This document shows, piece by piece, positions 6,098 to 22,028 of a DNA stretch of 23,773 nucleotides. Source of the DNA: an uncultured virus (IMG/VR IMGVR_UViG_3300031555_010821) (taxonomy: Duplodnaviria > Heunggongvirae > Uroviricota > Caudoviricetes). The notes beneath the pieces are model-generated. The model did not search any database, was not told where the DNA came from, and worked only from the letters and a program-made list of their open reading frames with translations. The position numbers and the translations under genes are program-made. Location of the stretch: IMG/VR virus record IMGVR_UViG_3300031555_010821, one strand, 5' to 3'. The first letter of the stretch is position 1, and each line of letters opens with the position of its first letter.

Positions 6098-6338
6098 CAA
6101 AACCTCCGATCAGATCGAGAACTTCCTTAATTGCCGCTGCGCGGCCCTTGTTGTAGCTGTATGCCCTCAGAATCTCCTGCTGGATGCTGCTCCCTTCTGT
6201 AGCTCGGTCTGCTCTGTTCTTCTCCCACTCTGCGTGTTTGACATAATGGTGATACATGCGGACCAGATCGGCCTTGAAAGTCTGAAAGTCCTTTTCGAGA
6301 TTCTCCTTGATTCTGTCGAAGTAGCTGAGCTTACTCAT
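6069..6338 (-). CDS. hypothetical protein (paralog of 5879-6097)
   Basis: start MSKLSY overlaps the end of the upstream gene; shared motif. Confidence 0.7.
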   Translation of the reverse strand: MSKLSYFDRIKENLEKDFQTFKADLVRMYHHYVKHAEWEKNRADRATEGSSIQQEILRAYSYNKGRAAAIKEVLDLIGGFDDEQAEGTA

Positions 6339-6519
6339 CGTCTTTTCCCTTTCGCATTTCCTTTTCCATCCACTTTTTAAGACCTTCAACGGGAACTAAA
6401 ACTCGGCGCCCGATGTGAATAACCGGAAAATCCGCTCTGTGTACCAGCTCGTAAGCCTTCGGGCGACTGATCTGCAAAACCTGTGCGAGTTCGTGTACCG
6501 TAAGTGTCATCTTCTCCAA
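6331..6519 (-). CDS. excisionase-family (HTH_17-like) DNA-binding protein
   Basis: LTVHELAQVLQISRPKAYELVH..DFPVIHIGRRVLVP; GGAGG RBS. Confidence 0.85.
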   Translation of the reverse strand: MEKMTLTVHELAQVLQISRPKAYELVHRADFPVIHIGRRVLVPVEGLKKWMEKEMRKGKDDE

Positions 6520-6988
6520 TTTCTTTTACCTCCTGCATATTGAGACGAAGCGCTTCGTTCATGCTGTCAATCACTGCCGCGAGCGTTTTGATACTTCTGT
6601 ATTTATTAACAAAGGCTTCCATGTCTTTTCTGGCGCTTTGCTCCAGAACTTCCATCATCGACGGGCTTTTGATCGCCACCTGAATCGGCGTATAGTCGCG
6701 CTTTCCCTCGATCACCTTGACGAAAGCGCGGATAGGAGCTTCTTCTGTTTCCTCGGTCTTAATGACCAAACAACGAATGATGTGCGCAGCCTGGTTTTCA
6801 CGATAGGCTTCAGCCGCAACAGAGTCATTCCATTCAAATTCATTATGAAGCGGAGCATCTTCTGCTCTGTTGGCATCTACCAACCGCTTCGGTGTCAATC
6901 CGCCGCTACGAGCAAGCTGCTCACACATTTCACCTGCAACCTGTGCAGGGGTTTTAATCATAGATTTCGCTTTATACTGGTAAACCAT
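6386..6988 (-). CDS. conserved-looking phage protein downstream of the RAMP/repeat module
   Basis: AAGGAGG RBS before ATG 6988 (MVYQYK); motif LTP..LVD..R....PLH..FEW.D..AAE.YR...A..IIR. Confidence 0.75.
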   Translation of the reverse strand: MVYQYKAKSMIKTPAQVAGEMCEQLARSGGLTPKRLVDANRAEDAPLHNEFEWNDSVAAEAYRENQAAHIIRCLVIKTEETEEAPIRAFVKVIEGKRDYTPIQVAIKSPSMMEVLEQSARKDMEAFVNKYRSIKTLAAVIDSMNEALRLNMQEVKEIGEDDTYGTRTRTGFADQSPEGLRAGTQSGFSGYSHRAPSFSSR

Positions 6989-7013
6989 AAAGTTCCTCCT
7001 TTTTTCATCCTGG

Positions 7014-7042
7014 CAGTCGGTGAGCATTATGCCCACCGACTG
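7014..7042 (-). other. strong RNA hairpin closing the repeat tract
   Basis: CAGTCGGTGGGCA-TAA-TGCTCACCGACTG on the - strand; 13 bp with one G-U pair; no U-tract. Confidence 0.8.
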
Positions 7043-7045
7043 TTA

Positions 7046-7131
7046 GCCAGCCGTGTCGCGCCAAACCCGGCCTCACCAAGCCGTGCCTCGCCCGGCCCCA
7101 CCCTGCCTCACCATGCCCCGCCTCGCCTGCC
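7046..7131 (-). repeat. period-5 GGY-NN tract: 15 pentamers (14 GGY, 1 GAC) flanked by GGCA and GGCT-GGC
   Basis: GGCA GGCGA GGCGG GGCAT GGTGA GGCAG GGTGG GGCCG GGCGA GGCAC GGCTT GGTGA GGCCG GGTTT GGCGC GACAC GGCT GGC. Confidence 0.95.
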
Positions 7132-7146
7132 GAGGATTGACGGTCG

Positions 7147-7803
7147 TCAGTTTACTTCCACATGGAACATACCGAACTGGCCGTCACGCTCAGGTCTGTA
7201 TTCGCCAATGCCGCACACAAAGCCGCCGGCGTTGATGATGTTGATAATGTTCTCCAGGCTGAACGGGCCGTGCTCGTTGTAGCTCACAACAATATCAGCG
7301 TACCAGTTGCGGATCTCACCGCGATAACGAATATCAGCAGTACCCATGCCGACTCGTACCATGTCTTCACGCATAATGGGTGCATCACCCTTGATTTCAA
7401 CCATTCCGTCAACGTCATCGTCGATGAAGAAAGCACCTCTCAGAGCCATCTGATTCTTGACCCAGCCCATTCTGTATGCTGCGCTGATTGCTGCCTGCTT
7501 CAGTCCAGTTACCGGGAAACCGAACCGAGCGCCGTTGCTGATTGCTTCATCATAAGCCTCTTTGGTCATCTCAGTAGGCTTTTCGGTCAGCCAGTACAGG
7601 GAATCGATAAAATCCGCCATCGGGTTCTTGTACTCCTTCTTTTTGCCCTTGGCCAGACCCATCTGAGCATCCAGCATCATTTTCTTGGCCTTCTCGCTCC
7701 ATGCGTGAACGATCAGAGGAGAATCGCCCGAGATGCGGATTTTGACCTTCTTGATCTTGATAGGGGTGATTTCGATTACTTCACTGTTCTTCTTAACTGC
7801 CAT
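7147..7803 (-). CDS. stand-alone Cas7/RAMP-like RNA-binding protein (Vipr-like)
   Basis: IRISGDSPLIVH (RAMP beta1), FPVTGLKQAAISAA (P...lK..l..a helix), beta-hairpin thumb-like EDMVRV...IRYR, C-terminal Gly-rich loop GGFVCGIGEYRPERDGQFGMFHV; AAAGGAG RBS. Confidence 0.8.
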   Translation of the reverse strand: MAVKKNSEVIEITPIKIKKVKIRISGDSPLIVHAWSEKAKKMMLDAQMGLAKGKKKEYKNPMADFIDSLYWLTEKPTEMTKEAYDEAISNGARFGFPVTGLKQAAISAAYRMGWVKNQMALRGAFFIDDDVDGMVEIKGDAPIMREDMVRVGMGTADIRYRGEIRNWYADIVVSYNEHGPFSLENIINIINAGGFVCGIGEYRPERDGQFGMFHVEVN

Positions 7804-7824
7804 TTTCAGTTTCTCCTTTTCAAA

Positions 7825-8091
7825 TTAAAAACTTTTTCTTCCGCTGGGTTCGAACGTCGGGATGCCTGAGTAGTTCATCTCGGTCTTCCTCCAACGCTGT
7901 GTCTTTATGGTTCCAATCCAATCCTGATAAATTCGGAAATAGCCATCGTGAACTGGAACGCGAATGTTCATGTAGCCGAAATCTGCACTCACATCTACAA
8001 ACTGAAGACCGGCTTCCGTGAGCTTCTGTCTAACCGCTTCCGGTGTAGTGGCGCCCTCGATATACATGTCGATGGAAAACTGCTCAATCAC
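7825..8091 (-). CDS. hypothetical protein
   Basis: start moved to GTG 8091 after GAGGTG. Confidence 0.65.
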   Translation of the reverse strand: MIEQFSIDMYIEGATTPEAVRQKLTEAGLQFVDVSADFGYMNIRVPVHDGYFRIYQDWIGTIKTQRWRKTEMNYSGIPTFEPSGRKSF

Positions 8092-8095
8092 TTCA

Positions 8096-8329
8096 TCACC
8101 TCGCTTCCTTTGCCGGTGTCCATCCAGCCCAATGAGAATAGTTCTGATGGACGGTAAAGATACCGGCATATTCAAAACCATTGCGCTCCAACGATATCCG
8201 AGCTGCTGTTCTGGTCCGCCAGGTGCCGCCCTTTCCGATGTATGCTCCCTGTTCATCAACCAGGTAGTAGACTCTGTCGCCTTTGCGCTTGAGGGTATAA
8301 TCAATAACCTCTTTGATTCTGACCTTCAT
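8096..8329 (-). CDS. hypothetical protein
   Basis: start ATG 8329 after GGGAGG. Confidence 0.7.
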   Translation of the reverse strand: MKVRIKEVIDYTLKRKGDRVYYLVDEQGAYIGKGGTWRTRTAARISLERNGFEYAGIFTVHQNYSHWAGWTPAKEAR

Positions 8330-8342
8330 AACGAATCCTCCC

Positions 8343-8534
8343 TTAGATGACACCACCATCGGCAGTTACGATGCAGAAACCAGCTTTGCTCATATAGTAT
8401 TCGTTACCGGCCTCATCGATATATGCTCGCTGCTTACTAGTGCCAGAAACATCAGCTTCGCCCTTTGGGAATCTGGTCAGCTTGCCAACCACTTCATGTC
8501 CAACTTCAGCGGCGTATTTTCTAATGGTATTCAT
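8343..8534 (-). CDS. hypothetical protein
   Basis: 63-aa ORF, GGAGG RBS, first gene after a promoter. Confidence 0.75.
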   Translation of the reverse strand: MNTIRKYAAEVGHEVVGKLTRFPKGEADVSGTSKQRAYIDEAGNEYYMSKAGFCIVTADGGVI

Positions 8535-9907: not shown

Positions 9908-10681
9908 CTACTTCTTGTTCCAAGGCAACTCGGTAATGATGTCTTCGCCCCAGATGGGCTTCATGCTGTCTTTCATAAAGACCGGAATGTTGTTCTTCTG
10001 GCAGAACTCCACATAGGGTTCAACCCAACTGCGCTCAGGAGACACCCTGTTTGTACGACTTCCTGTTTCAGCGCCCATGATAATCCAGTTATCTCGCAGA
10101 GCCTCCGGGCTATCAGGATACGGGAACGGCTTCAGAATAGGCTCCATGCTGACAAAGGTATTGTGATAGTCAGATTTGAAAATGTCTGCATCCGGGTTGT
10201 CAGCGGTACTGCCGTACCAGAAGTTGTCTAGCTCAGGAAGCAAACCGTCTTCGTGTAGCCACACATACCGCTTCGGGTTCTTCGTCAGGAATAAGTATCG
10301 ATGCCCTTCTGCGGCCTTGCAAGCTTCGAAGATCTCGACAATCCATTCGTCTGGAATCCAATCTCCAAACATATCCGCCATCGAGCAGACAAAAATTGTT
10401 TCGCCAAACCCTTTGGTCAGTGGGTCTTTCAGCCTGTACTTATGGAACGTCGGTGTGAATCCATACGGATAGGCAGCGCCTCGGGTTCCACCGCTCTTGC
10501 TAGTAACCTTCATGCGCTCATTCAGAACGACAATCGGCTGATCGGTATGCCCGTCCGGAGCCGCGTCACATCCCTTGAACCGATTCGCAGTACCACGAGC
10601 GTAGCAATATGGGCAAGTGTTGTAGCATCCACTGATCGGATTCCAACTAGAATCTGCCCACTCAATCTTGGTCTTTTCCAT
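9908..10681 (-). CDS. DUF5131 (phage Gp37/Gp68, radical-SAM-like) protein
   Basis: TKIEWAD.SWNPISGC...CPYCYA, IFVCSMADMF, LTKNPKR, SMEP, WIIMGAETG. Confidence 0.9.
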   Translation of the reverse strand: MEKTKIEWADSSWNPISGCYNTCPYCYARGTANRFKGCDAAPDGHTDQPIVVLNERMKVTSKSGGTRGAAYPYGFTPTFHKYRLKDPLTKGFGETIFVCSMADMFGDWIPDEWIVEIFEACKAAEGHRYLFLTKNPKRYVWLHEDGLLPELDNFWYGSTADNPDADIFKSDYHNTFVSMEPILKPFPYPDSPEALRDNWIIMGAETGSRTNRVSPERSWVEPYVEFCQKNNIPVFMKDSMKPIWGEDIITELPWNKK

Positions 10682-18104: not shown

Positions 18105-18725
18105 CTATTTGTAAGACTGAATGTAGTCGTACACACATTTCAAACTGCCGAAAACGCGCCACCTGGCCGCATCATTGACGGCGTAGCTGTGTTCTTTGTA
18201 TTTCCCGTTATTTTTCAAATGAAGAATCATCTTGTCCTCAACGGGAATACCGTGACTGACCAGGGCTTGTGCATACGCTTCGAGCTGTACGCCGCAGGTC
18301 ATATCGACCAGAGACGATGTGGTCTTGAAATCGACAAGAGTTAACTTATCGTCGATATATGCGAGCAGGTCTACTGTGCCGCCATAACGCAGGATGCGGT
18401 GATACACCCTAACTTCAGAGCCGACAACAATTGGCTTCTTCAAATCCCACCATTCTCTGAATGCGCTAAAGTATCCGCGATGCTCCGGGTTTACATCTTC
18501 GATCTCATACTTTATCCAGACCTCAATGCTGTTATGGACGGAGGTTCCTCTATTCGCTGCATTCTGAAGCGTCTTTTCGCGGATATGTGCATAATTTGCC
18601 CCACTTAACGGTTCAAGAATAGTAGATACGCTCGGTATGCTTTCGCCATCCAGCCGGTACTGATGCGGACCATCATCAAAAGCCAGTTCAGGAAAATCCG
18701 GGACTGCTATAATGCGATCGCTCAT
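18105..18725 (-). CDS. PD-(D/E)XK exonuclease (Bet partner)
   Basis: H.Y...G..IPSVSTIL, RGT.VH, YGGTVDL...LVDFKT, QLEAY. Confidence 0.88.
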   Translation of the reverse strand: MSDRIIAVPDFPELAFDDGPHQYRLDGESIPSVSTILEPLSGANYAHIREKTLQNAANRGTSVHNSIEVWIKYEIEDVNPEHRGYFSAFREWWDLKKPIVVGSEVRVYHRILRYGGTVDLLAYIDDKLTLVDFKTTSSLVDMTCGVQLEAYAQALVSHGIPVEDKMILHLKNNGKYKEHSYAVNDAARWRVFGSLKCVYDYIQSYK

Positions 18726-18952
18726 CAATTCTCCTCCTCTGCGGTTTTCCACTCGCCGCCCATCAGAGTGACGAGTTCGCTGTATGGCATATCTTCGATA
18801 CAGGTCAAACAGTAGTCATCGCCGTTGATAACCGCGTACTCATCGCCGGCAAGAATGCCTTCTTTGCAGCGGCGGCAGGTAGTGACCGGCGCAGGGTCAG
18901 AAGCGTTGGGGCATCTGGGATGGCAGGGATTCTTCAGGCATACATCACACAC
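18725..18952 (-). CDS. small Zn-finger-like protein
   Basis: CDVC...PC...CP, CRRC, CLTC. Confidence 0.75.
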   Translation of the reverse strand: MCDVCLKNPCHPRCPNASDPAPVTTCRRCKEGILAGDEYAVINGDDYCLTCIEDMPYSELVTLMGGEWKTAEEEN

Positions 18953-21957: not shown

Positions 21958-22028
21958 ACGGTTAGGTTAGGTTACGGTAAGGTTACGGTTATGTCTGGAA
22001 ATTCCGCGGATTTTCCATGGATTTTCCA
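21958..22028. repeat. GGTTA-type short repeats plus three 11-bp YGGAWWTTCCR direct repeats
   Basis: ACGGTTAGGTTAGGTTACGGTAAGGTTACGGTTA; TGGAAATTCCG, CGGATTTTCCA, TGGATTTTCCA at 21996, 22007 and 22018. Confidence 0.85.

Follow-up and report, generated by a model that had tools for sequence, protein, structure and literature searches.

VIPR (Viral Interference Programmable Repeat) is a CRISPR-like, DNA-silencing system that was first described in 2026 (10.64898/2026.04.26.720920), with two companion preprints (10.64898/2026.04.26.720927; 10.64898/2026.10.15.759431); all three appeared on bioRxiv between April and October 2026. The published systems comprise types I-VII, and the accessory genes named there are vap1-6. 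According to the accessible parts of the first source, the vrRNA that serves as the guide consists of 9-16 YNNGG repeats and a structured 3' tail and is encoded beside vipr; at least four tandem YNNGG/GGYNN pentamers are needed for a vrRNA to be called, 9-16 being typical (10.64898/2026.04.26.720920). Systems with a single vrRNA were reported there as functional types. The Vipr protein of phage SUSP1 was described in the accessible portion of a companion preprint as contacting the GGY through thumb and G-loop residues (R138, D177, W178 and R179, the arginines R138 and R179 belonging to the thumb and the G-loop respectively), while H17 of the RRM sheet contacts G1 and K33 is a bundle lysine (10.64898/2026.04.26.720927). 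Binding of the target rather than cutting is in print, as far as the accessible text of these sources goes, for type II VIPR only (10.64898/2026.04.26.720920; 10.64898/2026.04.26.720927).

We analysed a 23.8-kb stretch of viral DNA, referred to here as the window. Its minus strand very probably carries a VIPR system, made up of vipr, one vrRNA and a conserved accessory gene, that belongs to a temperate phage infecting a Clostridia-type gut bacterium (Table 1).

Table 1. Positions of the VIPR features in the window.
Feature	Position	Strand	Basis
Probable accessory gene (vap-like), 201 aa, phrog_15946	6386..6991	minus	linkage; PHROG E 5.9e-19
Guide 3' tail hairpin, 5-bp outer and 12-bp inner stem	7010..7050	minus	fold
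vrRNA tract, 16 GGY-NN units	7048..7127	minus	GGY-phase score 14.5
GGCA, 4 nt, directly ahead of the first full unit	7128..7131	minus	sequence
Spacer from the vipr stop codon to the guide, 15 nt	7132..7146	minus	sequence
vipr, 218-aa Cas7-like RAMP protein (Vipr)	7147..7803	minus	ORF, sequence profile, AF2 model

The original prediction had described a 218-aa ORF with three motifs, and translation of the vipr gene recovered all of them (I.G.SPL..H, FP...LK.A...A and a terminal G-rich loop). The product had no match in Pfam, in NCBIfam (its Cas7 models included) or in PADLOC; the PHROGs search placed it in phrog_4652, a family of unknown function, at E 3.9e-27. When the single sequence was compared with PDB chains using phmmer, it matched 36pp_D, 'SUSP1 Vipr protein', at E 3e-4. 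A profile built from 81 homologs (35-78% identity) matched the same chain at E 1.7e-13, and the runner-up had an E-value of 0.31. hhalign, run against the vipr ORF from the SUSP1 record, gave a probability of 98.3% across the C-terminal 67 columns, and the alignment to SUSP1 Vipr was significant over the C-terminal ~70 residues only, that is, the C-terminal third. The single-sequence and profile alignments both placed the SUSP1 thumb residue R138 at R161 and the G-loop residue R179 at R203; both arginines were invariant in the 81 homologs. D177 and W178 of SUSP1 were replaced by E201 and Y202, conservative changes at positions where the family consensus is E and W. SUSP1 H17 corresponded to H33 through the N-terminal alignment alone, which was non-significant (phmmer domain 1, 0.4 bits). 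Histidine was the majority residue at this position in the 81-homolog alignment, and K38 was conserved in at least 90% of the sequences (the bundle lysine of SUSP1 being K33).

The AF2 model of the Vipr protein had a pLDDT of 95.7. Foldseek matched it to 48 PDB chains at E <= 1e-3, and the matches listed were all CRISPR RAMPs, namely Csm3, Cmr subunits, type VII Cas7 or gRAMP. The motif order had been taken as that of RAMP/Cas7 proteins, with AlphaFold and Foldseek against Cas7, Csm3 and Cmr4 suggested as a check; the Csm3, Cmr and Cas7 matches of this confident model agreed with that reading, and a RAMP fold was found. As modelled, the window protein is thus of the RAMP/Cas7 fold, and on the alignments above it is homologous to the solved SUSP1 Vipr.

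Sixteen GGYNN units followed one another in phase downstream of the vipr stop codon (7149-7147, minus strand). GGY was perfect in 15 of the 16, unit 15 reading GAC, and the 16 NN dinucleotides were of nine different kinds. The 86-nt period-5 tract that had been noticed about 15 nt past the stop corresponds to 7131-7046; it was confirmed as these 16 units behind a 15-nt spacer. GGCA preceded the first unit, and CTAACA came after the last. When both strands of the window were scanned, this was the one tract with a GGY-phase score of 4 or more (14.5); mononucleotide shuffles of the window (200) never exceeded 4, a score that eight of them reached. Tandem Repeats Finder gave just a weak period-10 row at the tract (7084-7117), an expected outcome with two variable bases in every five, and Rfam had no match within the window. 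To judge from its repeat pattern, the tract fits the published vrRNA form. The original prediction was correct in its caution that this may be a new VIPR member rather than a new class.

The 152 nt at 6995-7146 folded with a predicted energy of -66.9 kcal/mol (z -3.2), and none of 200 shuffles folded as well. A 13-bp hairpin had been reported after the tract. The hairpin was recovered; its pair count was not, the fold having an inner stem of 12 bp (7041-7030 with 7026-7015, closing a 3-nt loop) and an outer stem of 5 bp (7050-7046 with 7014-7010) that takes in part of the last unit. The hairpin was followed by an A-run and then by a ribosome-binding site (GGAGG), ahead of the next gene, whose ATG is at 6991. 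Scans for promoter and terminator consensus found no such sites between vipr and the tract and no U-run after the hairpin. DNA of the locus occurred in runs from faecal metagenomes of animals, with no RNA run among the seven runs listed. The guide was unchanged in contigs of four further faecal metagenome DNA runs; being identical in all four, it was uninformative on NN turnover.

Two side observations concern similar sequences. A short run of six units, GGTTA or GGTAA, with two insertions of one base each, occupied 21960-21991 (plus strand) in the gap that immediately precedes the serine integrase gene, and an 11-nt direct repeat came after it (22008-22028). This run has the GGY-NN form but its NN is nearly invariant (TA) and its strand is opposite to that of vipr; it could represent regulatory repeats or a degenerate solo guide. 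Separately, runs X3-X6 contained short contigs that matched parts of vipr (7200-7730) with many differences, most being less than 90% alike, and several different Vipr-carrying elements seem to coexist in one faecal sample.

The window covers the early region of a temperate phage. Pfam identified a serine integrase, CI-like and Cro-like repressors, a PD-(D/E)XK exonuclease and RecT, together with a DnaC-like loader, RusA, an HNH nuclease, SSB, a DUF5131 protein and an ArpU-like regulator. All of these were encoded on the vipr strand except the integrase and the CI-like repressor, which shared the other strand with one intervening gene of unknown function. Over 6300-8400 the window was 100% identical to an IMG/VR record classified there as a provirus, and the closest genomic relative (75%) was found in a MAG labelled Oscillospiraceae; the host is probably a Clostridia-type gut bacterium. 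No cas gene or CRISPR array was found in the 23.8-kb window by Tandem Repeats Finder, Pfam (39 ORFs) or PADLOC (38 ORFs), as had been stated in the original prediction, bar a weak and generic Cas4_II-like match (E 2.2e-5). This lone Cas-related match belonged to the PD-(D/E)XK exonuclease (18105-18752), two genes from RecT and about 10 kb from the locus. The DUF5131 (Gp37/Gp68-type) gene at 9908-10681 on the minus strand matched the PADLOC candidate defence models PDC-M41B (E 4e-34) and PDC-M30B (E 1.9e-33).

Vipr homologs of 43-78% identity were collected in 39 IMG/VR viral loci, and 36 of these had at least one GGY-phase tract downstream on the vipr strand; the opposite strand had none. The three loci without a scored tract (L022, L026 and L027) still showed a 10-nt periodicity. 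A second test scanned the non-coding DNA adjoining vipr for the lag at which GG recurs, with no motif presupposed. The peak fell at lag 5 in 24 loci and at lag 10 in 19, that is, in 43 of 45, and at neither lag in any of 44 vipr coding regions. As for the two exceptions, the rule took the wrong interval in L005, and the array stood upstream of vipr in L045. The original prediction had proposed looking for period-5 GGY near homologs, and the 43 loci show a GG periodicity of 5 or 10 nt; its comparison of the locus with VIPR was right.

The guides of the relatives kept GGY, or a relaxed form of it, and differed in NN. Most relatives carried several guides back to back, with a one-base register shift at a GGCA|GGC junction; such arrays, with a 1-nt overlap, are called staggered in the legend of fig. 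S18 in the accessible part of the first preprint (10.64898/2026.04.26.720920). Three to eight tracts were counted in most relatives as against one guide in the window phage. In the closest viral relative, L001, the guides were separated by YTAACA. Inspection by eye showed that many arrays end in a short GGC...GCC hairpin followed by A-rich sequence, which is absent from the two closest relatives (L001 and L040). The terminal hairpin had 17 bp in the window as against about 3-6 bp in relatives. The order vipr, array, partner held in most loci; the order vipr, partner, array occurred in a subclade that includes L043-L045, MAG loci labelled Alphaproteobacteria or Sphingomonadaceae.

Some loci had features of their own. 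The array of the closest genomic relative contained about six near-identical 10-nt units (GGCAA GGAYA; L040 3789-3853), as if two pentamers had recently been duplicated in place. A large DNA methylase gene (N6_N4_Mtase) followed the array in 10 of 12 loci of the subclade with the alphaproteobacterial MAG loci (among them L031-L039, L043 and L045), and two of these ten also had a weak, sub-threshold ParB_N match. In the window, the gene at 136-870 matched PHROG families of ParB-like and of DNA-methyltransferase type.

The original prediction had called vipr solitary, which did not hold. A homolog of the gene at 6386-6991 adjoined vipr in 43 of the 45 related loci, and the two misses (L024 and L042) were contigs that ended first. 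When nine other neighbour genes were tested in the same way, 3 of 45 loci had the ArpU-like gene and no locus had any of the remaining eight. Because of this linkage to vipr across loci, the gene was taken as a probable vap, the vap of this clade. The phrog_15946 family has a winged-helix-like N-domain and a helical hairpin. The AF2 model of the accessory protein had a pLDDT of 84.5, its last ~50 residues being unstructured and of low confidence. hhalign found no detectable similarity to SUSP1 Vap1 (probability 0.35%), Foldseek returned no significant match (best E 0.43), the sequence profile search of the PDB gave a best E of 0.078, and there was no Pfam or NCBIfam family for the protein. Prediction of a complex between Vipr and the accessory protein gave a score of 0.00, a value that does not speak for or against contact.

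The accessory ORF extends some 50 codons beyond the usual end of its homologs (~150 aa), at 6386-6540 on the minus strand. The extension was present in one other protein cluster only (P0272, 82% identity), and the ORF overlapped the start of an HTH_17/excisionase family gene (6331-6519) by about 130 nt. This excisionase-type gene was considered as a third gene of the module because phage Quico and cyanophage Cy-LDV1 have Xis-like genes at the same place. It was rejected because none of 150 ORFs located on the downstream side of the accessory gene matched PF12728. The count covered 39 loci, after removal of near-duplicates (L002, L005, L006 and L029) and of L024 and L042, where no accessory gene was visible.

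Both genes also occurred in cultured phages. A Vipr homolog was found in 35 cultured phage records (27 Mycobacterium, 5 Gordonia, one cyanophage, one Salmonella and one Pseudomonas) and an accessory homolog in 33 (27 Mycobacterium, 5 Gordonia and one cyanophage), adjoining vipr in all rows compared. The identities for vipr and the accessory gene were, respectively, 36-38% and 28-36% in Mycobacterium phage Quico (gp57/gp58) and Gordonia phage UmaThurman (gp39/gp41), and 28 and 34% in Cyanophage Cy-LDV1 (g34/g33). In all three phages these genes are annotated as hypothetical proteins only. Quico had an array of about 240 nt (L048 1620-1860) in an unannotated gap upstream of QUICO_57, the vipr homolog. 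Nearly all of its units are GGC-NN, and its junctions read GGCA|GGC. The array stands two genes after an antirepressor gene and a gene annotated as putative Cro. In UmaThurman an array of about 310 nt (L049, tracts at 2620-2930) lay between the vipr and accessory homologs; gp40, a 'hypothetical protein' CDS (L049 2628-2951), sits almost wholly inside this GGY-NN array and is probably not a protein gene. The arrays of Cy-LDV1 flanked the accessory gene on both sides. Beyond cultured phages, the Vipr clade of the window comprised thousands of metagenomic clusters and was very abundant in gut and rumen metagenomes.

Targets of the guide were searched under the published rule of a one-base skip, in which GGY is read as one N, and the published threshold is an 80% NN match. 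The best match in the window had 18 of 32 bases and the best in related loci 20 of 32, in each case equal to the control (for the window, the reversed guide). No site with up to three mismatches was found in 401 genomes from the family of the closest host MAG, and the controls likewise gave none. Exact seeds of nine NN in three patterns had no match in IMG/VR; seeds of eight NN in four patterns hit 58 loci there, the best with 10 of 16 NN. For the JGI metagenomes, a 10-NN seed had no match and a 9-NN seed hit 37 loci, the best with 11 of 16 NN. All these partial matches were below the 80% threshold and look like chance. The searches, confined to the collections named above, relied on exact seeds or at most three mismatches and were much less sensitive than the nhmmer pipeline of the VIPR authors.

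Three other explanations of the locus were weighed. The least credible, which we regard as close to dismissed, is that vipr is a stray Csm3/Cmr4 gene captured by the phage, a fragment of a degenerate type III CRISPR-Cas system. The best structural matches were indeed Csm3 chains, but identity to Csm3 was just 10-14%, no Cas7 model of Pfam or NCBIfam matched, the window had no CRISPR array, cas10 or other cas gene, and the sequence homology goes to SUSP1 Vipr. Scarcely more plausible is a period-5 G-rich tract that has nothing to do with the protein and acts as a structural or regulatory element, such as an attenuator, a terminator region or a recombination site. Its stable fold on its own and its place between two genes of one operon would suit such an element; yet the tract accompanied vipr homologs (41-78% identity) across MAGs whose labels name different phyla and across phages whose hosts belong to different phyla. 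Its strand was always that of vipr, its GGY was retained and its NN varied, and no U-run followed the hairpin.

A decaying or idle remnant, with the array shrunk to one targetless guide and the locus carried passively, deserved somewhat more weight and was still judged improbable. The single guide where most relatives have three to eight tracts, the target searches without a match, the degenerate unit (GAC) and the accessory ORF with its unusual low-confidence tail of about 50 aa, shared with one other cluster only, are all compatible with decay. However, both ORFs were intact and of full length, GGY was perfect in 15 of 16 units, the guide was identical in contigs of four further faecal metagenome runs and the target searches were insensitive; moreover, single-vrRNA systems were reported as functional in the accessible part of the first preprint (10.64898/2026.04.26.720920). 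The preferred reading is a VIPR system of vipr, one guide and the accessory gene.

If this VIPR system works as type II does, the guide would be transcribed together with vipr or just after it, and some 16 Vipr protomers would polymerise on it, one per five-base unit. Each protomer would hide GGY and display NN, so that the filament could bind double-stranded DNA, reading NNx sixteen times with one skipped base per unit. Such binding might keep a gene that belongs to a rival mobile element from being transcribed. By the same analogy, we infer binding rather than cutting for the clade of the window, and the hairpin may take the role of the 3' cap that the pseudoknot has in SUSP1. The accessory protein probably helps on the DNA side. 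A bolder proposal, to which we give a low likelihood, is that phrog_15946 forms a separate, so far uncharacterised Vap class that has no relation to Vap1, is obligatory for the clade and could handle staggered arrays or DNA hand-off. In that case the single long guide and its enlarged cap hairpin would represent a streamlined form with one target, directed against something not yet sequenced, possibly a host gene instead of a rival phage.

The finding is not a new class of system, and the published VIPR type data may well already include this clade. The particulars of the locus are the single 16-unit guide, the enlarged terminal hairpin, the position of the guide between vipr and the helper gene, and a helper without detectable similarity to Vap1. 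With a single protein, a single guide and a single helper, all carried by a prophage, the locus offers a clean, minimal example of a system that so far rests on three preprints. The same Vipr clade is present without annotation in well-studied cultured actinophages and is directly testable there, and the near-constant accessory gene is a practical entry point to what is least understood in VIPR biology.

Compared with type III CRISPR-Cas, the window is without the CRISPR array, Cas10 and further Csm/Cmr subunits of those systems. Csm3 and Cmr4 step by 6 nt with one base flipped, whereas VIPR steps by 5 nt with three bases hidden, and the published VIPR target is double-stranded DNA, unlike that of type III Csm3/Cmr4 systems. 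The type II system of Escherichia phage SUSP1 (Vipr, Vap1 and four vrRNAs; PDB 36pp) has a homologous Vipr with the G-loop and thumb arginines kept, and SUSP1 and the window both have guides of the GGY/NN form, the 3' end in the window being predicted to be structured. The window has its guide between vipr and the accessory gene, whereas the guides of SUSP1 lie upstream of vipr and downstream of vap1, and the tail is a hairpin in the window as against the published pseudoknot of SUSP1. With staggered-array VIPR, as presented in the accessible part of its preprint (10.64898/2026.04.26.720920), the locus shares a Vipr RAMP, GGY/NN guides on the same strand, an adjacent accessory gene and the viral setting. 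Relatives of the window Vipr have such back-to-back guides with GGCA|GGC junctions; the window has a single 16-unit guide with a larger hairpin. Quico, UmaThurman and Cy-LDV1 carry the same pair of vipr and accessory gene as the window, but their arrays hold many guides where the window holds one.
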